DNA of 64,000 bases from the NCBI RefSeq assembly GCF_055900595.2, contig NZ_CM148325.1; one strand, written 5' to 3'. Positions 29,044 to 52,678 of this stretch are shown here, in pieces. The number at the start of each line of letters is the position of its first letter. Within the stretch, counting starts at the first letter, position 1. A program made the translations under genes and the position numbers. Under the pieces are notes generated by a model. The model saw only the letters and a program-made list of their open reading frames with translations, was not told the DNA's origin and ran no database searches.

Positions 29044-32000
29044 ATGTCGGTATGTCTGAAACCAGGGAAAATCATTATGCTTCTGGGCATGTTGGCAGCT
29101 TTTATGCTGTCTGACTTTGCACGGGCAGGGGCGGAATGGCAGACATATCCTGATTCTACAGGCGAGTTTAACGGAACCGTTCCTTTTGCCGACAGCGCCA
29201 GCGTACCCGTCTATCAGGGCAGTGTTCAGCTTAATCCTGCTGAATCTCATGATGTCGGGTTTTCTGCTAAACCGAATGAATTTAGCGTTGACGATGACGC
29301 TGCTAACCTGATTGTCGCTAATCCTCAGGACAATGAAGGCGACCAGTTTTCCACACCACCTGCGCTGCGCTGGGAAAATCAAACACCCCCTACCGTCAGC
29401 CTGGTGTGGGCCGATGCCGCCACGCCCGATGTGCCCCTTAACCCACAACCTATTGCTAACCGTAGCTTTTGCGCTCAGGGGCTGGCCGGACGCTCGCTGG
29501 TGGCCTGGCCGCAGATTGATGCGCAGCAAACCCTCCCACTGCTCTACCTGTTGACCTCGACCGGCTATCCCTATGCGGGGACGGTGGCGCTGGTGGACCA
29601 GAAAGTGACCCTGAACATCGCGCCCGCGCAGGGCGATTTAATCTCGGTGAGCGCCAGCGGTTATAACGAAACGATCGCGGCGGCAAAAACCACCGTTGGC
29701 GACACCATCACGCTCACCGTCACCACTAAAGATTGTCAGGGCAACGTCGCGGGTAATATTCCGTTTATTATCAAACGTAAAGATGCTGAAAATCGCCAGG
29801 GGGCAGTGAATAATAGTGCGCCAGTGGTACTGGATAGCACCGAGTTAACGACGACGGCTACCGAATACCATGGCACCTCTGATGCCAACGGCACGGCCAC
29901 CATCACGGTGAGCCAACCGAACGGCCCTGGCGTCAAAACGCCACTGGTGGTCAGCATTTCCGGCATTGCGCAAACCAGCGAAACCGCGGTGATTTTTACG
30001 GTGCTCACCAGCCCGGACGCGGCGCAGGCTACGATGTGGGGCCATATGGCGGAAACGGTAGAAGCGCACGGTTACACCTTCAGTCGACCAAAGCTGGCGG
30101 CAGAAGTCAGCAATGAAAGCGCCACGGTCGTCGATCACAACGAAACCTGGTCCACCTTCACCTGGAGCGGCGCAGATAACCACTGCACCGTGCTGCCCGG
30201 CATGCGCCACTTCGGCGCGCTGGCGACCGTTATCCCCACATCGGTGCAGACAGTCCTTGGCTGGCCGATGCAGGGGGATTATTACTGGTCATCGCTGGCG
30301 GGCACCACCGGGCAGCACCATGCGGCGGATGTCTCTAACCGTGGTGAAACGCAAAAGCCGGATAGCACCCCGTTTCTTGTAAGCTGCGTGGATAAACCCG
30401 CGCCTGATGTCGAGCCGAAAATCGTCCTTACGCCCGAAAACTATGATGATACGGCACAGGCGATGAAATCGCAGGTGGGCGAAGACGCCACGATGCGTCT
30501 GACGATCACCGACAATAAAAATAACGATCAACCACTGGCGTATTACTACTTCTCGCTGCATCTGGATGACGGCGTTAACCGCAAAAATCAAACCGATTCC
30601 GCCTGGGAAGCCCATCCGGTGCAGATTACTGGTGGTTCGAATTTGCAACAGGTTGATGCTCACACCTATGAAGGCATGACCGATGTCAACGGTCAGGCTT
30701 CGCTAACCCTGAGTCAGCCCGACGGCGCAGGCGTGAAAACCCATATCACGGCGAAAATGCGCAGCAATTTTACGGCTACAGATGCCAAAGACGTGATTTT
30801 TACTGTGATCACCAGCCCGGACAGCGACAAGGCGCGGATGTGGGGCCATATGCGCGGCATTGTTGTATCTGGCAGTCTGTTCAAACGCCCAGTGCTGGCG
30901 GATGAAACTGAGCATGAACTGGGATCGGTGCGGGAAAATAACGAAGACTGGGCGCTGTTCGATCAAGACACCAGTATGCAGGCTGAATGCGGCGTCGGCC
31001 ATACGCCAAGTCAGAGTGGGCTGGAAAGCCTTTTTTCAGCCCATCCCGGTAACGCGATTGGCACTGAGTATGGCTGGCCCACCGCACAACAGAACTACCT
31101 AAGCGCGGTGGAGCAAGCCACGCATTCATCGGTGAATTTGGCGAACGGAAACGTCGACAGCTACCCCGGCTTTAAGCGAAATTACCTCTCCTGTTCGGGC
31201 AATGAGATGGTCGCGAAGGTTGAAGTGAGCACCGATCACGATGTCACCCCTGGCACCAAAGCGCAGGCCAAAGTGGGAGACACCGTCGTGATGACCGTGC
31301 GTACGGTTAACGCGCTCAATAATACCCCCGTTCCCTTTACTGCCTTCACCATCACTAAAGGCATGGGGTATAACCGAGCGGGGCTGGTGAGCGGGTTTGA
31401 TGACCCGAGCAGCGGCGCAATCTCGATGAATGGCACGCAATACGGCACATCTCAGCCGTCGATGGTCTACACAGGTACGACAGATGCACAAGGCGTGGCA
31501 ACGGTCGAAATAGAGCAACCCCAGGGGGTGGGGTTAAGAACCGTGCTGAGCATTACGCCGGTCAATTCCCATCTACCAAATGCCATTAATTACAATGTTA
31601 TTTTTACCACCCCAACCAGCCCGGATGTTAGTGGGGCGCAGATGTGGGGCCATATGGATGAAACGATTACCGTTGATTCATTAACCTTTACCCGGCCTAA
31701 GCTGGCAGCAGAAATCACCAGTCCGGATGGCACATTAACGGAAAAAAACGAAGTCTGGGCGCGCGTTAGCCAGGCCAGTACGGCCATTACCAGTAAAGGC
31801 GGTTGCGGAACCAATATGCTGCCGCGCCGCTCCCAGCTCAGTGCGCTCTATGACGCTAATAACGGTAATGCGGTGCAAGCCACACACGGCTGGCCGACGC
31901 AGCGTCAGCCCTACTGGAGCAGTTCCCCCGCGGATTTAACGCCGCACAATTACACCATTGCCCTGGATAACGGCGCACAGGCCATCGGCGGCGATACGCC

Positions 32001-35000
32001 GGTTTACGTCAGTTGCCTGACGACGGCGAACAAACCTGCCAGCAGCATTACGCTGGATGTGGTTGATAACGCACAGTGGGCTGCCGGAAATAACGCGGCG
32101 AAGCTGAAAAAAGGCGAAACGCTACAGGTTAAGGTAACGGTAAAAGATGCGCAGGGTAATCCGCTCACGGATATGCCATTTAAACTGAGTCGCGGAGACG
32201 GTTATACCCGCACGGGCGAAAAACATATTGCCGGTAGTGGCGATGCGCTGGTGGCACCGGTGGTGATTAACAGTGGGCTGGCGGATGAAACGACGTTGAA
32301 CGACACCGCGGGATTTTATACTGCCATGACCGGCAGCGACGGCAGCAAAATCCTCAATATTACCCGCCCGGATACTCACGGTACCAAAACGGCGCTGACG
32401 GCGACGTTGTATTCCGATCCAACAAAAAAAGACAGCCTGGATACAATCTTTACTGTGGTCACCAGCCCGGATAGTAGCAAAGCGAAAATGTGGGGCCATA
32501 TGCCGGAAACCTTAACGGCGGCAGATGGTACCGTTTTTAAACGCCCATTGCTGATAAAGGAACTGTCGAGTCAGACCGGGCGAACAGCAATATTCGAAGA
32601 CAATGAAAACTGGGCGCTGTTTACTCAAACCCAGGCGAACTCAACCAGTAACGGCTGCGGCACTAGCTATGTTCCCACTCAGGCAGGGTTGTTGTCGTTG
32701 TTTGATAATCACGCTGGCAATACCATCAAAACCGTCCAGGGCTGGCCGGTAGTAACGCGTTATTTATCCAGCACGCCCGACAACACTGGCATGGAACAGC
32801 GTAACTACAAAGCGGTGGATCTCGGCAATGGCACCAGTGCCATGGTGTCAACGTCGACACTGGATCTACTGACCTGCCAAACCACGCCAGTCACCACGGT
32901 GAGCCAGATTCTGCTGGAAGCGGCAGATCCTGCGGCTCTGATTTATGTTGACGATACACTGAGTGTGGTTAAAGCCAAAAAAGGCGAAGAGTCGGTAGTG
33001 CGCGTCACCACGAAAGATGCGCAAGGTAACCCGGTTGGCAATGCGGCGTTTATTCTGAAACGTGCCACCAGCATAAACCGGAGGTATACATCAGCGACAG
33101 CGAGTGTAGGTGCGCTGACTGTAACCGATGCCTGGGGAAATACGCGGAGTAATTTTCAGGCAACAACTGAAATGATCTATGGCGTGACGGGGGCTGACGG
33201 GTCGACAACCTTTACGCTGAAACAGGATAACAGTACCGGGTTAAGAACCGATCTCACGGCATCACTGGATGGCGTCAGCAGCGTTCAGGCGACCCTCCCG
33301 ATGGTCTTTACCGTGGTAACCAGTCCAGATTCTCCTAAAGCGAATTTTTGGGGACACATGCCTGAAACGGTAACGGCCGCTGATGGCATGACGTATAAGC
33401 GACCATTACTGTTTAAAGAACTTACCAATAACTATGCACGCTATAGCACTTTTGAGAATGGTGAAGATTGGGCAAGATTCAGTGTGGTTCAGTCAAATAA
33501 CACCGATATGGATGGATGCGGTGCAGAGTATATGCCGACACTGGATGGCCTGCAGTCCTTGTACAGTGCCAATAGTGGTAATGCGATGAGTACAGTGCAG
33601 GGATGGCCGGTAGCTAATAGTTATCTCACCAATACACCGAGTGATACGCAACCCAGTAACCGTTATTACAATGTGGTGCAACTGAATTCCGGCGCGGTTT
33701 CTCAAATCGTGACCACCGTGCTGGCATTACAAACTTGTCGCACAACGCCTGCGGTTATTGCCAGCCAGGTGTCTCTGGAGCCTGCGGACGCCACGCAATT
33801 CGTTAAGGTTGACGATACTCTGAGCGCCATTAAGGTGAAAAAAGGCGATGAGGTTGTTATTCGCGTCACGACCAAAGATGCGCAAGGAAACCCGGTGGGT
33901 AATACGCCGTTTACACTGAAGCGTAGCAGTTCTTTCAATCGCCAGAATGCATTAGTGACGATGCAGACGGTTTCGGTGACACCCGCAGCGGCCAGTACAG
34001 TTGATACCAATGCATCGGCCACCGTGTATGGCGTGACCGGGCCAGACGGAACCACCACGATGACACTCCGACAGGATGCGTCTACTGGACTCAAAACCGA
34101 CTTTTATGCTCTGTTGAACGATACCGGCGTGTCGTCGAACACCTTGCCAGTGATCTTCACCGTCGTCACCAGCCCGGATACACCGCTGGCGGCCAACTGG
34201 GGGCATATGGCGGAAACCTTTACCAGCAGCAAGGGCGTCACCTTCAAACGGCCTTTCCTCAAAGCTGAACTTTCTGGTGGTACGGCGGTAACGACCAATA
34301 ATGAAGTCTGGTCGCGCCTGACAGCAACGGAGAAAACGGATGCCAGCAAGGCGGGTTGTGATGAGAGTTATCAACCGCTGATGACTGACATGCAGGGGTT
34401 GTATGCGGATTACCCTAACAACCAGTTGGGCACGGTGCTCGGCTTGCCGACTTCCGCCGGGTATATGTGGGCCTACGACATGATGACGGTTTCTGGCAGC
34501 AGCTGGAGCAACCAGGCATATTCGCTCGTTAATGGTCAGACAGTTCAGGCATCGTCCAGTTATACGGCGGTAGTGATGTGCCTGGTGGAACCGCATACCG
34601 TTCCGGCGATGATAGAGATCACTTCAACAGCACAGGATGCGGCAAAAACGGTCAGCAATGGTGGTCGACCGAGCGCCGTAGCGAAGAAAGGTGAGACGAT
34701 TCCGCTGACGGTGACCGTACGTGATAGCACCGGGAATCCGGTACCCTACGCCGACTTTACCCTCACGCGTGGAACGACGCTGGATCGCTCGAAAGCAACC
34801 GTTAACTCGAGTGCGGACGATCTTACCGTGAAGTCATTGATACCCGCGAACAGCGACGCTGGGCTGACGGCAAATGGGGCAAAAGTGCTCAGAACAACGG
34901 GCAGTGATGGCACTGCCACCTTTGAAGTGAGCCAGAATGCCACGACAGGTCTGGCGACACCGATAACCGTCACGCTGGCGCGCGATACAACCAAAACCGC

Positions 35001-37131
35001 CACGCTGGATGTTATCTACACGGTGATAACCAGCCCGGACTCACCGAGCGCGAAATTCTGGGGACACATGCCGGACACCTTTACCAGTTCGGCAGGCGTC
35101 ACCTTCAGACGACCGCTCCTGAAAGCCGAAGCGACTTCAGGGTCATCGATTAGCACTAACGGTAATGGTGAAGTGTGGTCGTATATGAGCAACGTTCAAA
35201 ATTTAACATCGACAGATTGTCCGCTGGAGAATCAACCGCGCAGTAATGAATTGTTGGATTTGTATAATGATCATCCCAACGGCGCGATAATGACTGACCT
35301 GGGGCTGCCGATATATGCAGGCAAGTGGTGGGCTTATGATATGGTCATGCCGGATTTATATACGTGGCAGTATCAGACTGTCAGCCTGAGCGCAGGAGAT
35401 ATCGCGAAGAGCTCGGCAAACAACGCGCTGATGCTTTGCCTGGCGAAGCCGCATCCGGCAGGCGTCAGCGTAATGTTGACGTCATCCGCAATGGATAACG
35501 CCAGAACCCTCAGTAATGGCGGGCGACCCAGCGCGTCAGTGAAAAAAGGTAACCCACTGCCAATTGTGGTGACGGTCAAAGATCGTGATGGCAACCCGCT
35601 GGCGGGAGAGGCCGTGACGCTCAGGCGTGGTTCAGCGATGAGTCGTTCAGGAGCAGGAGTGGGCACGCCGGCAAATGCAATGACGTTGACAGAATTGACA
35701 CCTGTGTCGGCGGAGTTTTCTCTGGCCGCACACGATACGCAATGGCAAGGTTTCACCGGTAGTGATGGTACGGCCACTTTCAATGTTGAACAGCCTGAGA
35801 CCATCGGCCTGGCTATCTCGTTCACCGCTATACTGGCGCGAGATGTCGCAACTACCAGCGTCATTGATGCGATCTTTACCGTCGTCACCAGCCCGGATTC
35901 CGCAATGGCGACCTACTGGGGCCATATGCCGGATACGGTAACGGCGGAAAACGGCGTGGTCTTTGAACGGCCTAAATTGTTGAAAGAGCTGCCGTCGAGC
36001 GCCGGAGTCAGTCAGGTGACGGATAACAATGAAGTGTGGCCGTTGTTTAAGGCAACGCAAAGGGAAGATAGCAGCCTCAGTCCTTGTGAAGCGGCACGTC
36101 GGCCATTGAGCGATGATTTATTATCGCTCTACGCGCGCTATCCGGGGAACACGCTGACGACTCAAATCGGCTGGTCTACGAAGTATGCATGGTGGGCACT
36201 GGATAACAAGCAGGGGAATGCCCTGGTTGTCAGTCTGAATAATGGTTTTGAGTCGTCGACGGCGAGTACGGGGTATCAGGGATGTCTGGTCAATCCCCGC
36301 GCGACCGTCTCCAGCGTCACGCTGACATCGACGGCGATAGATGCCACTACGCAGGCGGCGAAGGTAAAAAAAGGTGAAGCCGCGCCCGTCGTTGTTACCG
36401 TAAAAGACAGCGCCGGGAAGCCGGTACCTAATGTCGCTTTCACCTTAAAACGTGGTGATGCCGTGCCGCGTAACAGCGGGGCGACGTTGTATGGTGATGT
36501 TGCGGCGATGGATGATATGACGGTACAACCTGCCAGCGGGACGGTGGTAACGCTGGCTGACAGTGGGAATACGATCGACGGTGTGACAGGGGCGGACGGT
36601 ACGGCAAGTTTTGCCGTTCGTCAGGATAATACGCCAGGATATAAAACGCCGTTGACGGTGACGCTGACGGATAACGCCACAATAACGGCGACGCTGGATA
36701 CGATTTTCACCGTGCCGACCAGCCCGAATGTCGCCACGGCGTATTTCTGGGGGCATATGGCGGATACCGCCACCGTAAGTGGCAAGACGTTACATCGCCC
36801 GCTATTGAAATCAGAGTTGCCGTCAGGGGCTACAGCGGCAGTAGCGCCAACGGTGAATAATGAAATCTGGGCGCTGGCACATGTGATCGATGCTCAAAAA
36901 TGGGATATTGCAAAGCAGTGCGGTGACTTTAGTAGAGCACCGAGCTATACCGATTTACAGTCATTGCATAGCGGTTTTAGCGCGCTGGGATGGCCATCAT
37001 CGATAAGCTTCCCCTATTTCTCTACCGATCGGGCCGGTTCGTTCTATTGTGGTATGGATGAAGGGGCGGGGACACAAAACTGCGGTATTCAGGCATCCAG
37101 TACCGCAGGGTTTGCGACTTGTTTCCAGTAG
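29044..37131 (+). CDS. ratA: giant repetitive secreted/surface protein (RatA-like)
   Basis: 2695-aa ORF with N-terminal signal peptide; nine tandem ~270-aa units each carrying FTV(V/L)TSPD..(M/F)WGHM motifs. Confidence 0.8.
29650..37100 (+). repeat. nine in-frame tandem coding repeats (~0.81-0.86 kb period) within the ratA-like gene
   Basis: WGHM signature recurs near nt 30033, 30838, 31642, 32490, 33347, 34197, 35058, 35917 and 36757. Confidence 0.8.
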
Positions 37132-43248: not shown

Positions 43249-43503
43249 CTATGCGGGGATCTTGGTACCAGAGCGCTTTGGGACTTTGGCCAGATTTTTC
43301 TGTACCGCGTTATCAATATGGTGATGGTTATTTTCCTGCCGTGCTTTGAGCCAGCGTTCCACTTCCTCTTTGTCCCACGCGACGGCGCGCTTCGTTAGCG
43401 CAAAACGTTTGGGAAACAGGCCTTTTTGCTCCAACGCATAAATCGTACTTTCAGAGAGTGGCACCATCTGTAAAAGCACGTTTTTTCTAATGGCAATTTT
43501 CAT
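43249..43503 (-). CDS. AlpA/Vis-family phage transcriptional regulator (excisionase-like)
   Basis: 84-aa ORF resembling AlpA (..LSESTIYALEQKGLFPKRFALTKRAVAWDKEEVERWL..); adjacent to and divergent from int. Confidence 0.75.
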   Translation of the reverse strand: MKIAIRKNVLLQMVPLSESTIYALEQKGLFPKRFALTKRAVAWDKEEVERWLKARQENNHHHIDNAVQKNLAKVPKRSGTKIPA

Positions 43504-44314
43504 TGTTTATTCCTTTAATCCAAAGGCACTCAGTTCTGATAACAGATCCTTTTTTACCAGCAGCGGCAGATTGCTTTGTCTCTTTACGCCAGCCGGTTAG
43601 CAAATCGTTATACATTTCGGTGTCGTAGCCGCTGATAACCACGCTTCCTTGTAACCGGGTGACGGTCTCCAGTAAGCGCAGGTGGGCACCATCGTCCATT
43701 TCGTGGCGATAATATTTGTTAGTCAGATTACGGGTGCTATGAACATACGGCGGATCGACAAAATGCAGCGTGTCGGCGGCGTCATGATCCAGAATACACT
43801 GGATGGCATCGCGGTTTTCCACCAGAACCCCTTCAAAACGCTGACCAACGGCGGCCAGATTATCGGGCATACGGCTCCAGATGTGTTGGGCCGTTCCACT
43901 GGCGCGTTTAGTGTCCAGCCGAAAGCCGGTAGTGCCTTTAGTTGCCCCGGCAGAACCGAAGCCCATCGTGGCGCGAATCACTAAACGCCTTGCCTGTTCA
44001 ACAGAATTTTTCCCATAGCGATAGGCCGAAATAAACTCGGTGCGGGAATAGGGTGTCAGGCTGCAGGCTTCAACCAGTCTTTCGCGCAGTTGTGGGGTAC
44101 GAAGAACGGCGAACAGGTTAACGACGTCGCCATCCAGATCGTTGTAAACCTCGGCGTAGCTACGTGGTTTTCTGAGCAGTACGCTGGCTGCACCGCCGAA
44201 GGGTTCCACATAGCATCTGTGGGCCGGAAAGTGGCTAATGATCCACGGAGCTAGTCGCCACTTGCCGCCGTGGTAGCGGATTGCAGGGTGCTTAATCATC
44301 CAGTTTTTCTCCAC
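43487..44314 (-). CDS. Dam-family DNA N6-adenine methyltransferase (paralog 1)
   Basis: 275-aa ORF with N-terminal YHGGK..RCYVEPFGGAAS AdoMet motif and catalytic DPPY motif. Confidence 0.8.
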   Translation of the reverse strand: MEKNWMIKHPAIRYHGGKWRLAPWIISHFPAHRCYVEPFGGAASVLLRKPRSYAEVYNDLDGDVVNLFAVLRTPQLRERLVEACSLTPYSRTEFISAYRYGKNSVEQARRLVIRATMGFGSAGATKGTTGFRLDTKRASGTAQHIWSRMPDNLAAVGQRFEGVLVENRDAIQCILDHDAADTLHFVDPPYVHSTRNLTNKYYRHEMDDGAHLRLLETVTRLQGSVVISGYDTEMYNDLLTGWRKETKQSAAAGKKGSVIRTECLWIKGINNENCH

Positions 44315-44891
44315 GCCGTTCTACGTTCAGGTGTCGCCACTGCACCGCAATCCGTTTCATCACCGCATTCCCCTCTGGGATCACCTCCTGCGGCTCCTTC
44401 ATCAACATGACCCGCCCCCGAATAACGATCAGCGCTTGTTCCAGCAGGCCATAGTCCAGATAACAGAGATCGGGAATATCCAGTTGCCACACATAGCCAT
44501 TCCATGCTGAAAGTAGCACTTGCGCGGCGGCGCGTCCGCCGCTGGTTTCTGTGAGCGCGATTTTGGCAAGTGTATTGACGGCTGCGCCATATTCCTCTGG
44601 CGTGACGCGGAGTTTCTGCTGGCTGTTATCTTCTTTTGCCAGCGTTAATAATCCAATCGGGTGTAATACGCCCAGCTCTTCCATCTTTTCTTTCAATGTT
44701 GCAGCTGTATTCCATCCAATTCTGAATTTGCGCTGCAGGCGGCTGATACTGATAATGCCTTCCGCCTCGGCCAGTTCGACCGCTTTGGGATAGAGTTCAT
44801 TGAGCCGATATTCGTAATCAGCGAAGGGCGCACCGCTATTCTCTGGCAGGCCAGAGAGTGTTTGTGAATTATTTCCAGAGGATTTCATCAT
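44292..44891 (-). CDS. protein with FtsK-gamma-like winged-helix domain
   Basis: 199-aa ORF; segment ISISRLQRKFRIGWNTAATLKEKMEELGVL closely parallels the FtsK gamma domain ([29 protein letters not shown]); overlaps downstream Dam gene by 23 bp. Confidence 0.55.
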   Translation of the reverse strand: MMKSSGNNSQTLSGLPENSGAPFADYEYRLNELYPKAVELAEAEGIISISRLQRKFRIGWNTAATLKEKMEELGVLHPIGLLTLAKEDNSQQKLRVTPEEYGAAVNTLAKIALTETSGGRAAAQVLLSAWNGYVWQLDIPDLCYLDYGLLEQALIVIRGRVMLMKEPQEVIPEGNAVMKRIAVQWRHLNVERRGEKLDD

Positions 44892-44901
44892 AATTTCCTT
44901 T

Positions 44902-47559
44902 TTAACGTTGAAAAACCCAACACTTCACCGTCGCCGGGCGGCGCGGTGCGGCTGGGTAACGGCGGTTAAATTCAGCGTTGATGCCGCTGTTAACCGTTCT
45001 GACTTCAATAAACTTGTGGGTACGGCTGGTTTTTAGCACTCGCTTCAAATCGCTGATCGGCGGGATCTGCTGGCGGCGCTCGGTAGCCAGTTGAATAAAG
45101 TGGTTAAGGTTAACGGCGATAAGCTGTTCATCGCGCGAGTGGTTGAGCTGTGGTTCGTCGTCGCCATCGAGGAAGTCGAAAATATCCCAGAACTCCTGCA
45201 CCAGAGGATGGTCGGCGCTGATGGCCTGTTGGCGCTCCAGACTGAGGCGGATAAACATTTCTCTGGTCGCCTGTAGCTGCTCTTCCGTGACCGGAATAAC
45301 CAGCGCCAGCGCGTCGAGCAGCGCCATAAGCTGGGCGTGGTTTTTAATGATGCGGATATGGCGAATATCTGGGTGGGAGTGAAGTTGCTGCTCGTATAGC
45401 GGGATCTGACGGTTAACGCACTCCAGCACGGCCTGTTCCGCCAGCGCTGCCTTCAGCATAAAGCCGGAAAGCTGTTCTACCGGCAGGCGTTCGAGCTGCT
45501 CGGCAGCGACCTTGGTCTGAGTATTCTGGCCGCTGCGGTCGGTGTACAGGTGAATAATACGTTCCAGCACCGGGTTAGAGGCGCTAACATCGGCGTTTTG
45601 CGCAATCACAATCGCGCCCCGGAACGGCGGTTCATAGGTCTCGTTGCCGCTGTTACGCAGACCGCGAGAACGCACCGACCGCCCGTTATAGGCGGTTTTC
45701 AGCTCTTCCCAATCAAAGCCACGCTGCTTTGCCCCCTCCTGATTACGGTCACCCTCGATCAGCACCACCGGCATATTTGCTACCTGCGCAAAGTTGCGCG
45801 CGCGGGCGGCCAGCGTTGATTTAGACGGATCGAAACCTTCATAGTCGCGTCGGCCCAACAGTTTCCAGAGGAACTCTATCAGCGTGGTTTTACCGCTGCC
45901 GGGTTCGCCAACGATTTCCAGAAATGGAAAGCTCTTGTGCTTGTCGCGGATCTGTTCGGCAAACATCGTCCCAAACCAGTACGCCAGCGCCACAAACCCC
46001 TTTGCGCCAAACGCCTGCCAGAGTAGCTGGGGCCACTGGCTGTCCATCTGTTTTAAATTGTCGTTCAGCGTCAGGCTGACCGACTGGTTCAGGCTTTTAA
46101 GGCTAAGTTTGCCCATGTCGAAGAAGTCTTCTTCGTTGAGTGTGTACAGCCGACCATCGCGAACGGCCAGATCGTTGAACACGTAAGCGCGGTATTCTTT
46201 GCTGTAGCCGATAAAATCAGTGGTCTGGACAGTTTTGATTTTGGGAAGCTGCTTGAGCAGCAACTTATCTAACTGCTGACTGGTGCCGGTGAAGATGCCG
46301 CCCTGCGCGATATGCAGCAGGCGCTTTTTGAATTCTGAGCCGCTGGAAAGTTGGGAGCCGGTGAAGGTGTTTTTTATCGGTGGAGTGTCGTCGGGGAAGT
46401 TAATGCGAAAGTAATACCAGCTTTCGTCGGTAATGGTGTTGGCCTGATAGTAGAGGGCGGTCGGGTAGCAGTTGGCTATCTCAACAACGGCGGCTGACTC
46501 CTGTAGCGCTTTATGTTTGGCTTCTTCTTCGTCCAGCTCCTCTTTGCCGTTATACATCACGTTATCAAAGGCACGCATATAACGGTCAATATCCAGCTTG
46601 AACCAGTACAGGCGGCTGTCGAACTCGAAGTGAAACTCTTTGCGTTCGGTACGCTCATGCATCAGTAATGCTTTGGCATTCGGATTGGGAGCGATCAACA
46701 GTGAACCGTAGTAACGATATTTTTTAATCAGATCCGGGTTTAGCCGATCGCGCTGGTGCAAATCGTTCCAGTCCAGCTTGGTGCGGGAATAGGGCGTTTG
46801 TGCGGCGGTGGAAAGCCAGCCGTCGTCGCGGCTGCGTTTTACCCAGCGGCGGGTGTAATTCATGCCCGCTTTGTCGTTATCCAGCGCCCAGACCAGTAAA
46901 GGACGCTTTTTATCCACGAACAGCGCGGCCAGTTGGCTTAACGCCTGCGCCGGATAGTTGTTACAGGTCATCAGGGAAACGGCGGCAATGCCGTGGTGGT
47001 GCAGGGCGATAGCGTCAAAAATGCCCTCAACCAGCCAGATCTCCTGCTGTTCTTCCAGCTTAAGCGTTGGCAATTGCCACCATAGCCCGCTGTAAGCGCC
47101 GTGAAAATTGGCTTTGCGATCGCCGAAACGCTGTGGGCGGTCAACGATCCGCTCCCACCACACGCCGTCAGCCAGCGGGAAACGCACAGTGGCCGAGCCG
47201 AGATCGCGCCGTGCGTCATAGTAGTTCTCTTGAGCGTAACAGTTACGGAGCAGCGAAAGGTCAAAGCCGCGCATCTCGCGCAGGTAGGCATCGGCGGCGG
47301 CCTGTGGGTTTTCCGGGGTTGGGGGATATCTGTCTGACCAGCTTTCAAATAGATCCGGGTACACCTCTTTGATATGGATTTCGGCATTGCATTTATTCAG
47401 GCGACCGCAGCGCAGTACCCACGGGCTGATGGCGTAGGTGTACAGCTCTTTTTTCTGGCAGTCCGGGCAGACGCCCTGCCGCAGCCAGTCGCCCTGTTCT
47501 TTAAAGGAAAAATCGGCTAGCAGTCGCCGCGTAATTTCCTGATGAAGTTGTGGTTGCAT
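44902..47559 (-). CDS. phage/plasmid primase-helicase (zinc-binding + TOPRIM-like primase fused to P-loop NTPase; P4 alpha-like)
   Basis: 885-aa ORF; N-terminal CPDC..C..C zinc motif, EGIFDAIAL TOPRIM-like segment, Walker A GEPGSGKTT in the C-terminal half. Confidence 0.75.
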   Translation of the reverse strand: MQPQLHQEITRRLLADFSFKEQGDWLRQGVCPDCQKKELYTYAISPWVLRCGRLNKCNAEIHIKEVYPDLFESWSDRYPPTPENPQAAADAYLREMRGFDLSLLRNCYAQENYYDARRDLGSATVRFPLADGVWWERIVDRPQRFGDRKANFHGAYSGLWWQLPTLKLEEQQEIWLVEGIFDAIALHHHGIAAVSLMTCNNYPAQALSQLAALFVDKKRPLLVWALDNDKAGMNYTRRWVKRSRDDGWLSTAAQTPYSRTKLDWNDLHQRDRLNPDLIKKYRYYGSLLIAPNPNAKALLMHERTERKEFHFEFDSRLYWFKLDIDRYMRAFDNVMYNGKEELDEEEAKHKALQESAAVVEIANCYPTALYYQANTITDESWYYFRINFPDDTPPIKNTFTGSQLSSGSEFKKRLLHIAQGGIFTGTSQQLDKLLLKQLPKIKTVQTTDFIGYSKEYRAYVFNDLAVRDGRLYTLNEEDFFDMGKLSLKSLNQSVSLTLNDNLKQMDSQWPQLLWQAFGAKGFVALAYWFGTMFAEQIRDKHKSFPFLEIVGEPGSGKTTLIEFLWKLLGRRDYEGFDPSKSTLAARARNFAQVANMPVVLIEGDRNQEGAKQRGFDWEELKTAYNGRSVRSRGLRNSGNETYEPPFRGAIVIAQNADVSASNPVLERIIHLYTDRSGQNTQTKVAAEQLERLPVEQLSGFMLKAALAEQAVLECVNRQIPLYEQQLHSHPDIRHIRIIKNHAQLMALLDALALVIPVTEEQLQATREMFIRLSLERQQAISADHPLVQEFWDIFDFLDGDDEPQLNHSRDEQLIAVNLNHFIQLATERRQQIPPISDLKRVLKTSRTHKFIEVRTVNSGINAEFNRRYPAAPRRPATVKCWVFQR

Positions 47560-47647: not shown

Positions 47648-47896
47648 TTACGCGATTTTCTGCTTTTGCAGAAATTGCCCGCGTGTGGATAGCGGTATGT
47701 GTATCTTAGGATTCGGGCAACCGCTGGGTACTACCGTTCCCATCACGGTCTCCATCGCGATAAATGAAAACGAACAGTTAACGTTCTTGCACTGGTAATA
47801 GAGCTTACGTACCAGCGGTGACATATATTCGCTGCTGCGAATTATCGCCTTACCGTCGCAGTGTGGGCATTTCATCATGTCCGATCTCCTTACCAC
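47648..47896 (-). CDS. ogr: Ogr/Delta-family zinc-finger late-gene transcriptional activator
   Basis: 82-aa ORF (likely start MKCPHCDG at 47875) with CPHC..22 aa..CKNVNC zinc-finger spacing typical of P2 Ogr / P4 Delta. Confidence 0.8.
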   Translation of the reverse strand: MVRRSDMMKCPHCDGKAIIRSSEYMSPLVRKLYYQCKNVNCSFSFIAMETVMGTVVPSGCPNPKIHIPLSTRGQFLQKQKIA

Positions 47897-48201
47897 TTTT
47901 AACTAACTGAAACACTAACGCTTTTCGTTAACGGACTGACGAAATAGTGTGATGCCGTTCAAAAAAATGATTCTTGCCATGCTGGACATCGAACGGTTCT
48001 GCTCCAGCGCTAATGCTTACAGTTCCGCGATTTCAGCGGGGAGCAGACGCATTGCCACCGGTTTGTTCGACATCACCCCGCGGGGTGCTCGTGAGCGTAA
48101 GACGTTCTCATTTGTTTTCATGGTGGTATATTGTGGTTATTAACATTACACAATCTATAATTCCCTCAATTGAGTGAATTGTCAATGGTAATTATATCCA
48201 A

Positions 48202-48540
48202 ATGAAAGAATTTGGCATCCGTTTGAAGGAAGAACGTATCCGACTTGGCCTTGATCAAGACGGCTTTGGACAACTTGGGGGCGTGAAGAAAAACGCACAA
48301 AGTAACTATGAGAATGGACTGCGCAAGCCGGACAGTGACTATCTTGCTGGCATAGCGGCAGCGGGAGTTGATGTTCTGTATGTTCTAACAGGCAACCGCA
48401 CGCCTGTGGCTACGTTGTCCAGTAAAGAGAGTGTGTTGGTGGAGAACTATCGTTCTGCTACGCCAGAACACCAGTCCACCCTTGACACGGTTAGCGCTGC
48501 GCTTGCGCAACCGGGAGTAGGGAAAGCAGCTAAGGGATAA
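48202..48540 (+). CDS. XRE-family helix-turn-helix transcriptional regulator (Cro/CI-like)
   Basis: 112-aa ORF with classic HTH_XRE N-terminus (FGIRLKEERIRLGLDQDGFGQLGGVKKNAQSNYENGLRKPDSDYLAGIA); divergent from ogr. Confidence 0.8.
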   Translation: MKEFGIRLKEERIRLGLDQDGFGQLGGVKKNAQSNYENGLRKPDSDYLAGIAAAGVDVLYVLTGNRTPVATLSSKESVLVENYRSATPEHQSTLDTVSAALAQPGVGKAAKG

Positions 48541-48580
48541 CGAGTAGAATGAATTTGGTTATTGTCTGTATGGAGGCAAA

Positions 48581-49153
48581 ATGAAGTTGAATAATCTGGT
48601 TGCTCTTTACAGGAACATGACAGAGCAAAAATTGGATAGGGTTAAATTCCCATACAGACACAATAATTTACATTTTGATGTATTTTTCTTTATTGATGGA
48701 AAACCGTTTGAGCTTCTTTTCGGAGCATTAGGCGCTAATCTTTGCTTTCGTCTAAAAGTCGAGAAGGGATTCGTCATAAATCCTAATCTGGGAAGTGAGA
48801 CTTATAAAGAATTATGCAAGGCGCTAGGTTTGAAATATGACCCTGCCAATCCATTTAGAACAAGTAAGTTTTTTGAAGATTTTGATGGGAAAATCCCTAC
48901 ATCGGTTACTGTTAAGAATAAGGCAAAATATACTGATATTGCTGTGCATGTCAGGGATGTTGAAGAAGCAGACAGAATATATTTCTGTGGATGGAAAAAC
49001 AACAATGAAGAAAAGAGTCATGTTACTGAAGATAATTTAAAGAAAACGAAAGAGTTTTTAGGGTATCAGGCTTTTCTTGTTTGTAAGGAAAAGAATATTA
49101 GCAGTAGATGGACTGATTTAGAAAATAAAGCAAAAGATTTTTATTTACCATAG
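48581..49153 (+). CDS. hypothetical protein (cargo gene 1, no recognisable domain)
   Basis: 190-aa ORF with strong SD GGAGG; A+T-rich, Lys/Asn-rich; first gene of compact operon. Confidence 0.6.
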   Translation: MKLNNLVALYRNMTEQKLDRVKFPYRHNNLHFDVFFFIDGKPFELLFGALGANLCFRLKVEKGFVINPNLGSETYKELCKALGLKYDPANPFRTSKFFEDFDGKIPTSVTVKNKAKYTDIAVHVRDVEEADRIYFCGWKNNNEEKSHVTEDNLKKTKEFLGYQAFLVCKEKNISSRWTDLENKAKDFYLP

Positions 49154-49167
49154 GATTGTGAGGTTAT

Positions 49168-50316
49168 ATGTCTGATATTTCATTAGGGTGCGTGGTTGTT
49201 CATAGGTTGATAAAAGAGCAACATAAAGATTTCGATCACTCAAAACCATATAGTCGCCGTGATACGGTTCTTGACCGAAATAATGAAATCGTAATTAAAC
49301 TAGTGTCCAGTATAGCCGCATTGTATGGTAAAAAATCTAATAGCTCGCATTATGGTATATTTAATTTAGATGAAACACGCAGGGGGCCTTTTCCAGCGGA
49401 ATTTGATAAATATCGGAATGATACATCCAAGAAGTTAGACGATGAATTGTTTATAGGATTATCAAAAAATGTTATGCATCAGTTATATATTGAGGCAAAG
49501 GATCGACCTGCTGCATCAGGAGGATTACTTCTTTTTGCTGATTATATCAGTAAATCCGTGCGTTACTTTCTTATTGCAATGATTAAGCAAAAGGAAGGTA
49601 TAGTTATTAGTGATAAATTAGAGCCAAAGGAGTTAGAGCATCTTGATCTGGCAAAACTAAACCAGGCGGCACGAATAAACTATGATTTGTATGATAAATA
49701 TATTTCCGCTGATGAGAATGAAAGACAGGATGTTAATTATTTAAGTTTTGTTAGTCCCAGTTCTAACCAGACAACTTCAGGGTATTTCATTACTGCCTTA
49801 GGTTGTGATAAAGGTAATACATCAACTAAAGCTACGAGTAATTTAATTAATGAATCTTTTAACTTCTTCAGAAATCATCAAGAATTAAAGGATAATGCCC
49901 GTAAATTTAAAAATGAAATTATTGAGTATTTATTCGATTGTTCTGAAAATAACATTTCAGCTAAGCTCTCTGTTGTTAGTGAGATGGCGGCGAAGCATAT
50001 GGTTAATTTAGAAGATGACATTAAAGATAAATTGTCAGAAGAATTATATGCTCATTTGAATAGTGAAAGTATTCGTGTGCCTGTGGAATTTAGGGTAAGC
50101 AAATCAGTAGTTAAGAAAAACAGAAATATTAAATATACAAGTGATAATGTTAATTTTGAGTTTAAATCTAGTTTACTAGGCAATACTCTTGATAATGAGA
50201 TATGCTATAATAAGAAAACTGGACATTTAACTTTTACTCGGATTACTCCTGAGAAAAAAAGTGAAATAGCTCAATTGCTTGATGAGTTAATAAAAGAAAG
50301 AAATAGCGAAAAATAA
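49168..50316 (+). CDS. NdpA/YejK-like nucleoid-associated protein homolog (cargo gene 2)
   Basis: 382-aa ORF, SD GTGAGG; collinear similarity to E. coli YejK recalled from memory (VVVHRLIKEQH vs IALHQLIKRDE; GGLLLFADY..VRYFLIAMI vs GGxVLFCHY..VEYLLVAVL). Confidence 0.55.
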   Translation: MSDISLGCVVVHRLIKEQHKDFDHSKPYSRRDTVLDRNNEIVIKLVSSIAALYGKKSNSSHYGIFNLDETRRGPFPAEFDKYRNDTSKKLDDELFIGLSKNVMHQLYIEAKDRPAASGGLLLFADYISKSVRYFLIAMIKQKEGIVISDKLEPKELEHLDLAKLNQAARINYDLYDKYISADENERQDVNYLSFVSPSSNQTTSGYFITALGCDKGNTSTKATSNLINESFNFFRNHQELKDNARKFKNEIIEYLFDCSENNISAKLSVVSEMAAKHMVNLEDDIKDKLSEELYAHLNSESIRVPVEFRVSKSVVKKNRNIKYTSDNVNFEFKSSLLGNTLDNEICYNKKTGHLTFTRITPEKKSEIAQLLDELIKERNSEK

Positions 50317-50318
50317 GG

Positions 50319-50957
50319 TTGCTTAATATGTCATGTTTTGAAACGGTTGTTGAGCTTTTCAGATATGTAGGGCGTCCTAAATTTGATGCTATTAATAATC
50401 GTTTTTCAGCAACTATTTCTTATGATGCTCATATATATGAACTCTTAGTTTCTTTGCAACCTCATACAGCGTGGGGAGAAATTGAAGAGATTGTCATTGA
50501 TGATGTGGATATAGATGTTGATGATAGCCTTCCCGCTAAAGGAACATCAATAACACTGACAATCTCTATATCAACTGGAGCTAGTGAGTCATTTTTTATC
50601 GATATTAAAGATCTAATTCAAAAGTCTCCGATGTTAAATAGAGGTATTTTAAGAAAGTCTTTTTACTTGGTTGAGGAAGATTTTTATTTTAATGAAGGAA
50701 TGGTTGAGGGATTAGCAAAAATACCAGAACTATCTGTTTTAAAGAATCTTTGTGATTTTATTTTATGTCTATCAAAAGTTGCACACTACAGCAATAGTAA
50801 AAGTGATGATGTATGCCATAAGTTAGTTTTCTTGAAAAATACTAATGCTAAGTCATTACCTTTAATTATTGAAACTAATGTTGATTATTCACTTCTTTTA
50901 ACAGGTATTAAGGATTTAAAAATCATCGAATCTTTTTCTGATGAAAAAAAGCTATAA
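50319..50957 (+). CDS. hypothetical protein (cargo gene 3)
   Basis: 212-aa ORF beginning 2 bp after the preceding stop; acidic, no recognisable domain. Confidence 0.55.
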   Translation: MLNMSCFETVVELFRYVGRPKFDAINNRFSATISYDAHIYELLVSLQPHTAWGEIEEIVIDDVDIDVDDSLPAKGTSITLTISISTGASESFFIDIKDLIQKSPMLNRGILRKSFYLVEEDFYFNEGMVEGLAKIPELSVLKNLCDFILCLSKVAHYSNSKSDDVCHKLVFLKNTNAKSLPLIIETNVDYSLLLTGIKDLKIIESFSDEKKL

Positions 50958-51001
50958 CGGATGATAATTATTTTGAGCGAAAAGGGATTTTCATTAATAC
51001 G

Positions 51002-51583
51002 GTGGTCGATTTTCTTGAATCAATCGATGTAAAGAAACAGTTTCATTTTTTATTCTGTGAGTGGGATGAATTTCTAAAACTATACCATAATAACCTCGGT
51101 GTATATCTTAGTGGTTTTTCATTTCATAAAGTAAGAAAGGAAGTGGCAGAGGCAGAAGCTAATTTAGCTGAGCGTTTTTCAAAAATAATGTCAGACATGA
51201 TAGCTAAGCTTTTAGGTATTCCTGTTTCTTTGGTTGCTACTTTTGGCATGATAAAATTAAATACCCTGCCGGAAATGTTAGTGGTTTTTTTAGGTGTATT
51301 GCTCACGTCGATAATTATGTTTTTTATTGTAAGAAGTCAATACACACAGTTTAGGATGATTTGTGATGCTAAAGATATTATATTTTCCCCATTAGTGAAA
51401 AAATCTGTAGGTTATACAGAAGATTTGAAAAAATTAGTATGCAATGCAAAGGATAATTTAGACAAAAATCAGGTCATGTTAAATCGTTACCTTCTTTTCT
51501 TTCAATGCTTATGCTGGATTCCGACAGCCTTAGGTGGTGGAATGATCTTAATGGCTATTATGGTTCATTTAGGATTACTATAA
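51002..51583 (+). CDS. predicted membrane protein (cargo gene 4)
   Basis: 193-aa ORF with apparent GTG start; hydrophobic segments (IPVSLVATFGMIKL.., MLVVFLGVLLTSIIMFFIV, ..CWIPTALGGGMILMAIMVHLGLL); 3' end overlaps convergent gene D by 6 bp; start codon uncertain. Confidence 0.45.
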   Translation: MVDFLESIDVKKQFHFLFCEWDEFLKLYHNNLGVYLSGFSFHKVRKEVAEAEANLAERFSKIMSDMIAKLLGIPVSLVATFGMIKLNTLPEMLVVFLGVLLTSIIMFFIVRSQYTQFRMICDAKDIIFSPLVKKSVGYTEDLKKLVCNAKDNLDKNQVMLNRYLLFFQCLCWIPTALGGGMILMAIMVHLGLL

Positions 51584-52678
51584 ACTTAATTCCATTTCTA
51601 ATGCGGTGACATAACCAGTACCGCCATCCAACGTATGCACGCACCGCGTAATCACCCACGCGGTGCCATCAATTTCCGCCTTAAACCCCTTCACCTGCAG
51701 CGGTAATTCCGGGAACAAATCGGGCCGTCCACGCGCAAGATTCAGGCTGAACGTTGCCGCGCCGCGCTGTAGCTGCTCCCACGCGCTTTTTGCCGCTCTG
51801 TAGGCGTTATTTTTGTTGGCATAGGTGTGGCGCAGCACCTTGATATTTCCCTCTTCGCCAACCATCACGTTATCAGCATTGAATGAGGCGTCTGACGGCG
51901 GAGATTCTGTTGGTTGCGTTTGTGGACGGTTTTTCCGTGTCTTGCGCTTCATGTCAGTGGACTGCTTTTTTGCCTGCCGTGTATCCAGCCAGTAGGCCGT
52001 CACACCGGTATACGCCTCCCTGTCCGCGATGCTGAACCGGTGGCTGTCGCCGTCCTCGCGGGTAATGGTTGCGACCGGCAGCGGTTTGCCGCTGGCACTT
52101 TTACCGGAACCTGTCGGCATTAGCAGCAGAGCATCATTTTTCACGCAGGCGATAGCGCCGTGCAGTTGCGCCAGCCGGGTCAGGAAGGAGGCATCGGATT
52201 CGTTAGTCTGGTCAACGTGCTCAATGGCGATCCCAGCCAGCTCGCCGCTGACGGTTGATTCCAGCTTATGACGCGCCGCCACGGTTTGCACAATCGCGCC
52301 CAGCGTCGCATCATGGTAGCTCTGTTCCCGTTTAACGTTCAGCGAATCGCGGAAATCGGCGCTGCGGGCGCGGAGGCTGAGTACGTCCGGTGCGCCGCTG
52401 TGCTCCAGTTCGTCCACTGTGAAGACATTCTGGTGCATCACGCCGTCACCCTTCCAGCCTAGAGAAACCGTTAGCTTTTCGCCCTTTGCCGGAAACGCCA
52501 GCAGGCCGTCGCTGTCGTCCAGTTCGAGCTGCAGTTCGTCGGCCTCAAAGCCCCGGTTGTCGGTGATACGCAGGCTGATTAAGCGGTTGTCCAGATTCCG
52601 CGTAATGTCCTTACCGTTCAGCACCACGCTGTACTCCGGCTGCGGCTGGGCGTTTAAGAGTGCGTTTAACATCGTCAT
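51578..52678 (-). CDS. P2 gpD-like tail protein (late control D)
   Basis: 366-aa ORF, MTMLNALLNAQPQPEYSVVLNGKDITRNLDNRLISLRITDN.. typical of gpD; position after U. Confidence 0.85.
   Translation of the reverse strand: MTMLNALLNAQPQPEYSVVLNGKDITRNLDNRLISLRITDNRGFEADELQLELDDSDGLLAFPAKGEKLTVSLGWKGDGVMHQNVFTVDELEHSGAPDVLSLRARSADFRDSLNVKREQSYHDATLGAIVQTVAARHKLESTVSGELAGIAIEHVDQTNESDASFLTRLAQLHGAIACVKNDALLLMPTGSGKSASGKPLPVATITREDGDSHRFSIADREAYTGVTAYWLDTRQAKKQSTDMKRKTRKNRPQTQPTESPPSDASFNADNVMVGEEGNIKVLRHTYANKNNAYRAAKSAWEQLQRGAATFSLNLARGRPDLFPELPLQVKGFKAEIDGTAWVITRCVHTLDGGTGYVTALEMELSL

Follow-up and report, generated by a model that had tools for sequence, protein, structure and literature searches.

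What is encoded by the short open reading frame (ORF) that closes the accessory gene block of a P2-like prophage in the 64,000-nucleotide stretch of DNA analysed here (hereafter the window; NCBI RefSeq assembly GCF_055900595.2, contig NZ_CM148325.1)? In the ORF list it runs on the + strand from a GTG at 51002 to a TAA at 51581-51583 (193 codons), and it ends a series of ORFs that share its strand within an A+T-rich block of 3.4 kb. An earlier note, made from the sequence alone, had taken it for the terminal gene of the block, encoding a small multi-pass membrane protein and a candidate effector. The hydrophobic stretches of that reading stand, but the separate gene and the small protein do not: the ORF is codons 226-418 of a 418-codon gene at 50328-51583, split by contraction of a run of eight A to seven (A8 to A7) at 50944-50950. 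We consider it likely that the intact form of this gene pairs with a nucleoid-associated protein (NAP) as a defence system of the PANGU type II or DS-1 kind, and that the split copy in the window is off.

The evidence for a single gene comes from comparison with intact alleles. E. coli GMF054, identified by megablast against complete E. coli genomes, carries the whole cassette at 99.3% DNA identity, and there the NCBI Prokaryotic Genome Annotation Pipeline (PGAP) has a single hypothetical protein of 418 amino acids (aa), WP_024247619.1, across both a 209-codon ORF and the ORF at 51002-51583. Base-by-base alignment over 4.1 kb yields substitutions, one gap at the extreme end and one internal indel only: seven A at 50944-50950 in the window versus eight in GMF054. 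With seven, the zero-frame codons at the tract read GAT GAA AAA AAG CTA TAA and end at a stop, and the remainder of the protein resumes in the -1 frame at GCT 50951. The reading frame of the effector is broken in the window, leaving ORFs of 209 aa and 193 aa. Between them lie the codons at 50951-51001 (AITDDNYFERKGIFINT), which are kept in homologues of 54-86% identity; as these conserved codons stand 5' of GTG 51002, the GTG is not the true start but merely the first start-like codon found by a mechanical ORF rule. The nearest AAGGG lies 15 nucleotides (nt) upstream of it and a well-spaced ribosome-binding site is absent; ATG 50328 has AAGG 8 nt upstream. The doubt that the earlier note had voiced about the start codon was therefore well placed, since conserved coding sequence runs 5' of the GTG up to the frameshift site and there is no real start. 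Eight homologues of 35-99% identity are contiguous proteins of 401-419 aa. An exhaustive HMMER search of 1.84 billion cluster representatives (threshold E < 0.001) returned 505 relatives, nearly all of 400-430 aa and aligned over query residues ~4-405, and the 412-position profile of PHROG 5023 (unknown function) was matched over residues 9-397. The parts of the split gene are as follows.

50328-50957, + strand: effector 5' fragment, codons 1-208 followed by an aberrant Leu codon and a premature TAA (ATG 50328 is the PGAP start in GMF054).
50944-50950, + strand: poly(A) frameshift site, A7 here and A8 in intact alleles, the sole internal indel relative to GMF054.
50951-51001, + strand: 17 conserved codons (AITDDNYFERKGIFINT) in the downstream frame, outside both ORF calls and translated in the intact allele.
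51002-51583, + strand: effector 3' fragment, residues 226-418, made up of the last part of the helical stalk plus the membrane module (ORF list, alignment to GMF054).
51197-51334, + strand: hydrophobic hairpin, residues 291-309 and 314-336, predicted transmembrane (TM) segments TM1 and TM2 (hydropathy).
51491-51580, + strand: C-terminal hydrophobic segment, residues 389-418, predicted TM3 (hydropathy).

The 5' ORF, which has no family match, counts 209 codons from 50328, or 212 from 50319, to its end at 50957.

A difference of a single base within an A run raises the question of whether the missing A is a homopolymer sequencing error, such indels being common, with the gene intact in the organism. 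For this locus an assembly artefact is extremely improbable. The exact 209-aa product is found on 355 public contigs and the exact 193-aa product on 377, where they are annotated as separate hypothetical proteins; these identical split products come from many independent assemblies and sources, Illumina/SPAdes and complete chromosomes included, and the 193-aa fragment is listed in 744 blocks of the sequence collection, SPAdes Illumina contigs among them. Moreover, the A7 tract was read directly in three additional loci, and A7 and A8 each go with a prophage background of their own. A7 is a real allele. E. coli contigs with the intact 418-aa protein number 178, and Morganella and Salmonella houtenae have it too.

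The distribution of tract lengths places the mutation in a population context. Over 20.6 kb, 3-6 single nucleotide polymorphisms (SNPs) separate the window from the three additional A7 loci, and the A7 carriers are thus one near-clonal guaA prophage lineage. A8 alleles occupy a sister prophage background, where the 2.7 kb preceding the tract differ from the window by 19 SNPs and, in most loci, the 4 kb following it by ~120-140 SNPs; the prophages of this background (loci L019-L026) are without the D12-class methyltransferase that the A7-lineage prophage has. An A6 allele is present in the A7 background and A9 alleles in the A8 background, the latter on contigs that end 45-76 nt from the tract, such that tract lengths of A6, A7, A8 and A9 occur across the two backgrounds (the window; L015, L017, L018 and L019-L026). 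Other E. coli copies of the gene are disrupted elsewhere: by a T-run frameshift (249 aa), by a frameshift near residue 119 (128 + 294 aa) and by premature termination after residue 217. Such cassettes seem to decay often, and the pattern points to a mutable homopolymer with recurrent loss of function rather than to a designed two-gene arrangement.

Other lesions and differences were observed in related elements. The NAP genes of related systems are also split in Serratia marcescens and in one Morganella genome, and in one E. coli an IS1 lies between the helix-turn-helix (HTH) and DUF6037 genes of the cassette (loci with a split NAP or IS1: L003 4866-5999; L014 4843-5942; L025 7496-8193). The A7-lineage prophage has, together with its D12-class DNA methyltransferase, a longer FtsK_gamma+DUF7673 gene (window 43487-44314 and 44292-44891), and the DUF7673 gene of the A8-lineage prophages (L019-L026) encodes a shorter product of 125 aa.

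What the intact gene encodes is best seen in the whole protein. An AlphaFold2 model built on an alignment with 81 homologues (predicted local distance difference test, pLDDT, 93) has an alpha/beta domain from residue 1 to ~210, itself at pLDDT 87-93, followed by helices at 215-295, 297-310, 314-362, 365-395 and 398-417. In the model a hydrophobic hairpin (297-310 and 314-336) extends as a long helix to 362, a return helix follows at 365-395 and a final hydrophobic helix at 398-417; the frameshift, just past codon 208, hits the linker that joins the alpha/beta domain to the helices. Acidity marks the N-terminal domain: its net charge is -11 (equal to the family median) and its isoelectric point 4.8. 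Kyte-Doolittle profiles of the intact protein (19-residue windows) peak at residues 291-309 (1.88), 314-336 (2.94) and 389-418 (1.6-1.9), corresponding to 51197-51253, 51266-51334 and 51491-51580 in the window. Three such peaks are present in 61 of the 81 homologues, with family-mean values of 1.78, 2.3 and 1.77, and P299 is invariant across the 81 sequences. The several strongly hydrophobic stretches pointed out in the earlier note are thus three peaks that the family keeps, and its statement that no enzymatic motif is recognisable agrees with Pfam and PADLOC, neither of which returned a match for the fragment at 51002-51583 or for the intact 418-aa protein. A PDB sequence search with the effector family profile likewise gave no match. 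As for the candidate effector, its reading as the effector end, embedded in the membrane, of a defence cassette on a prophage survives; the stand-alone unit does not. A generic small membrane protein of abortive infection or exclusion was set aside as an explanation in favour of the TM effector of NAP defence systems, exemplified by Pag2B of PANGU type II and the second protein of DS-1.

The case for this family assignment rests on remote homology and on gene pairing. The intact protein matches the NCBIfam model DS1_2_antiphage with E 1.4e-19, its 70.5 bits being set against an equivalog cut-off of 315 bits, and all 81 aligned homologues match the same model, the best with E 4e-38. In a profile-profile comparison (hhalign) the effector family aligned with the second protein of DS-1, WP_000150292.1, at 98.8% probability (E 1.2e-16) over 315 columns, query 73-406 against 64-385; the DS-1 protein sequences were taken from the supplementary tables of PMC13092281. 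The NAP of the window matches NCBIfam YejK (E 5e-31) and DS1_1_antiphage (E 9e-23), both below cut-off (80.8 bits versus an equivalog cut-off of 330 for DS1_1), and the YejK structure 9be2 in the PDB with E 1.4e-9. A NAP gene lies directly upstream of a ~400-aa effector homologue in every homologous locus inspected, namely Serratia marcescens, two lambdoid prophages by the Q antiterminator, a Morganella island by a PglZ gene, a metagenome contig and another enterobacterial island, and NAP identity parallels effector identity (NAP/effector 80/68%, 47-50/37-39% and 44/34%). In the window, 11 bp separate the NAP stop from the effector ATG at 50328. The distant homologues are plain NAP and effector pairs, and the pair in the window is preceded by same-strand HTH and DUF6037 genes. 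Carriers of the ~410-aa effector family include P2-like and lambdoid prophages; in the phage collection, megablast with the cassette as query matched nothing, and tblastn found one full-length relative, in Klebsiella phage P7641 (33.5% identity), and three partial ones. By sequence, the family is a large set of ~410-aa putative TM effectors, distinct from DS-1 at the equivalog level.

Two recently described systems provide the frame for interpretation. PANGU systems, defined in a 2026 preprint (Li et al., bioRxiv 10.64898/2026.04.06.716658), comprise a type I, in which a YejK-like NAP is coupled to a GRel toxSAS, and a type II, in which the NAP Pag2A is coupled to Pag2B, a protein whose N-terminal acidic, DNA-mimicking domain binds Pag2A with a dissociation constant of 19 nM and which ends in a C-terminal TM domain; the NAP departs the nucleoid once T4 degrades host DNA, and defence is abortive (10.64898/2026.04.06.716658). 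DS-1 is an experimentally validated two-gene system composed of a YejK-domain NAP, WP_000355468.1, and WP_000150292.1 (DefensePredictor, PMC13092281). The cassette of the window resembles PANGU type II, as matched by description, in its gene order, a YejK-like NAP gene and directly after it one whose product combines an acidic N-terminal domain with predicted C-terminal TM segments, and in its occurrence in prophages and defence islands. It differs in that its effector is frameshifted and in that PANGU is defined as bicistronic, its two genes spaced by less than 40 bp, whereas the window cassette has two extra genes, for the HTH and DUF6037 proteins. With DS-1 it shares the two genes, the YejK-domain protein and a second protein homologous over ~315 columns, membrane region included, and all 81 members of the window family match NF053869 of the NCBIfam pair NF053868/NF053869. 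The second proteins nevertheless align by BLASTP at 26% identity over only 68 residues, and the two NAPs, 26% identical over 214 residues, differ by an N-terminal CxxC zinc ribbon that is present in DS-1 and missing from the window. On these scores, the window system can be placed in the same superfamily as DS-1 and in a different equivalog. By analogy with Pag2B, the acidic domain of the window family may be a DNA mimic. The PANGU type I layout, NAP plus a RelA/SpoT toxSAS, is found at the same insertion site in other E. coli; homology of the acidic domain to the toxSAS partner of this type I cassette was considered and rejected, no sequence relation being found between the window N-terminal domain and the partner in E. 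coli L725 (hhalign probability 0.3%).

Carried over from the PANGU literature to the intact system, these features suggest a course of events. The NAP would sit on the chromosome until an infecting phage degrades host DNA and frees it; freed NAP would then bind the acidic, DNA-mimicking N-terminal domain of the effector. The binding signal may travel along the long helical stalk to the three-segment membrane module, which would damage the membrane and abort the infection. Separation of residues 1-208 from residues 209-418 would be expected to disable such signalling, and the system in the window is probably inactive, as we infer from the separation of the fragments. As the putative NAP-binding domain and the membrane module lie in different frames, with no well-placed start for the second, the system is most likely off.

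Several observations weigh against this interpretation and must be considered together. Relative to DS-1, identities are 16-26% and profile scores lie far below the equivalog thresholds (70.5 versus 315 and 80.8 versus 330 bits), and defence activity of the window subfamily is thus suggested from distant homology. Assignment to PANGU type II is by architecture and follows the published description of Pag2B (10.64898/2026.04.06.716658). The predicted TM topology is based on hydropathy and the AlphaFold2 model. Finally, two features of the locus itself count against its being inactive: the 3' fragment is undecayed, with 0 differences from GMF054 across 51002-51583, and the frameshift site is an in-phase A_AAA_AAG heptamer that could give some full-length protein.

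The heptamer raises the possibility of leaky expression. Located at 50945-50951 and in phase with the upstream frame (zero-frame GAA AAA AAG), it might let the A7 allele yield some full-length effector by -1 ribosomal slippage, or the tract might do so by transcriptional slippage, whereby the system would operate at a low and cheaper dose and mostly the 209-aa acidic domain would be made. A_AAA_AAG is a recognised E. coli slippery sequence (PMC9307594) and matches the slippery site of dnaX in the correct phase; a -1 slip would join ...SDEKK to AIT..., exactly as the intact allele does; the slip site coincides with the opening of the downstream frame at 50945; no additional damage is present downstream of the break; and the A7 allele is abundant. 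At dnaX, however, frameshifting is stimulated by an upstream Shine-Dalgarno-like sequence and a downstream hairpin (PMC5389563, PMC9307594), and the window site has neither: the 80 nt at 50952-51031 fold at -12.8 kcal/mol, z = 0.00 versus shuffles, and no Shine-Dalgarno-like sequence lies upstream of the heptamer. Unstimulated slippage in vivo is of the order of 10^-4 to 10^-5 (PMC9307594). The likeness to dnaX is that of an identical heptamer in phase, but in the window this site stems from a recent 1-bp deletion and is unconserved, with Morganella and P0001 encoding EKR at the position and intact homologues being in frame there, some of them without an A run. A6 and A9 alleles are also found, as random slippage mutation predicts, and the abundance of A7 need not reflect selection in carriers that are near-clonal. 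We judge functionally relevant leaky expression unlikely. A related proposal, that the poly(A) tract is a contingency switch letting the prophage silence and restore a costly abortive-infection effector, with A8 ON and A6, A7 and A9 OFF or low, would accommodate the four tract lengths in two backgrounds and the lack of decay 3' of the break; under it, A7 may keep a trickle of full-length protein via the heptamer and overproduce the free acidic domain as a decoy. The A7 background has yielded no A8 allele, and the lesions of other copies are of unrelated kinds; such a switch is, in our estimation, quite improbable.

A further alternative is that the split is itself functional and that two polypeptides do the work, one being the 209-aa acidic domain and the other a 193-aa membrane protein translated on its own, from GTG 51002 or from an ATG inside the ORF. 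This would correspond to the small membrane effector of the earlier note, whether or not the N-terminal piece takes part. Both ORFs are intact and are annotated separately as hypothetical proteins in many genomes, the break falls between the alpha/beta domain and the helical stalk, and in the A6 and A9 alleles ATG 50941 is in frame with the C-terminal part. Yet the family is single-chain throughout, and no homologue outside the clonal lineage is split here; the GTG is without a well-spaced ribosome-binding site, and starting from it would lose the 17 conserved codons. Furthermore, the T-run frameshifts and premature stop in other E. coli copies are unrelated disruptions and speak of decay rather than design. 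A functional split must accordingly be regarded as very unlikely, and a frameshifted, probably inactive effector remains the reading that we favour.

The feature in the window is not a new gene but a distant member, disrupted by a frameshift, of a defence family that was first described in 2025-2026. This has consequences for annotation: UniProt A0A2K3TWD2 and A0A2K3TWG2, hypothetical proteins on hundreds of E. coli contigs, are the halves of one defence effector, and if taken as separate proteins they would mislead both counts of defence systems and tests of a 'small membrane protein'. NAP-sensor defence is a class known only since 2025-2026, and to it would now be added a large family of ~410-aa TM effectors, each paired with a YejK-like NAP that diverges in step with it. 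In addition, the ON (A8) and OFF (A7) alleles in near-identical prophages constitute a natural pair with which to test the system and the cost of its effector. Beyond these points of annotation, family and allele pair, the finding is an ordinary one.

The cassette is cargo between the ogr and D genes of a P2-like prophage integrated next to guaA, and its other features are given below.

47648-47896, - strand: Ogr/Delta zinc-finger late activator, left boundary of the hotspot (Pfam Ogr_Delta, E 1.1e-19).
48105-48132, + strand: promoter-like site, TTCTCA-16-TATATT with TG (consensus scan only, weak evidence).
48202-48540, + strand: XRE-type HTH regulator, first cassette gene and shared left arm of the hotspot (Pfam HTH_3, HTH_31).
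48581-49153, + strand: DUF6037 ('RloE') protein, accessory or independent module (Pfam DUF6037, E 1.7e-31).
49168-50316, + strand: YejK-like NAP (NA37), the presumed sensor, intact in the window (Pfam NA37, E 5e-45).
51578-52678, - strand: tail gene D, right boundary of the cargo hotspot (Pfam Phage_GPD, E 3.5e-23).

The promoter-like site is the sole + strand consensus match just 5' of the first cassette gene. Two remarks of the earlier note on the surroundings hold: the cassette is A+T-rich, with a GC content of 0.29-0.35 versus ~0.55-0.6 in the flanks, and it lies flush against the convergent gene D, which it overlaps by 6 bp (51578-51583). In this overlap either gene's stop codon sits on the other's final Leu codon, and the annotation of GMF054 has the identical overlap.

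Comparison across hosts reveals that the ogr-D junction of this family of guaA-integrated P2-like prophages is a cargo hotspot, with the HTH gene conserved at the left and the cargo exchangeable (window 47648-51583; L002 4049-7056; L027 4519-9436). E. coli L725 and CEC15 have at the same junction the same HTH gene (99% protein identity), followed by an unrelated NAP and a RelA/SpoT-family protein. The junction in Edwardsiella anguillarum holds HTH, BRCT-like, DUF6037 (>90% identical to that of the window), ThsB-TIR and caspase-like peptidase genes and further genes; an ASCH gene was also observed in this Edwardsiella cargo. Cargo hotspots of P2-like prophages have reportedly been described by Rousset et al. 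in 2022, and the present one is like them in offering a fixed site between conserved phage genes to interchangeable A+T-rich defence cassettes; it lies at the ogr-D junction, in an element that is integrated next to guaA and has a Toprim primase.

The two additional genes of the cassette appear to have different standing from the pair that they precede. DUF6037 is absent from the NAP and effector pairs at loci L011 and L012 (L005 and L007 have too little upstream DNA to tell), and in Morganella it is cut to a 38-codon remnant beside an intact NAP and effector pair; for this reason NAP and effector are treated as the core. A role for DUF6037 as third core component was rejected, since it is absent or degraded beside intact pairs and accompanies TIR and caspase cargo in Edwardsiella. 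The HTH gene is treated as a regulator common to the hotspot or as its left arm, and DUF6037 as a module apart. The DUF6037 protein bears the name 'RloE' in UniProt and keeps >90% identity across hosts whose defence cargo differs, which suggests an independent, uncharacterised defence-associated module; a search of the available literature collection for DUF6037 returned no papers.

Two minor observations concern the wider prophage and its neighbourhood. The window has a Toprim primase gene of 885 codons (44902-47559); in AP025754.1, a member of the A7 lineage, a split leaves pieces of 318 and 564 codons (L008 3901-6558). Upstream of the guaA region, a very long ORF of 2695 codons occupies 29044-37131 on the + strand.
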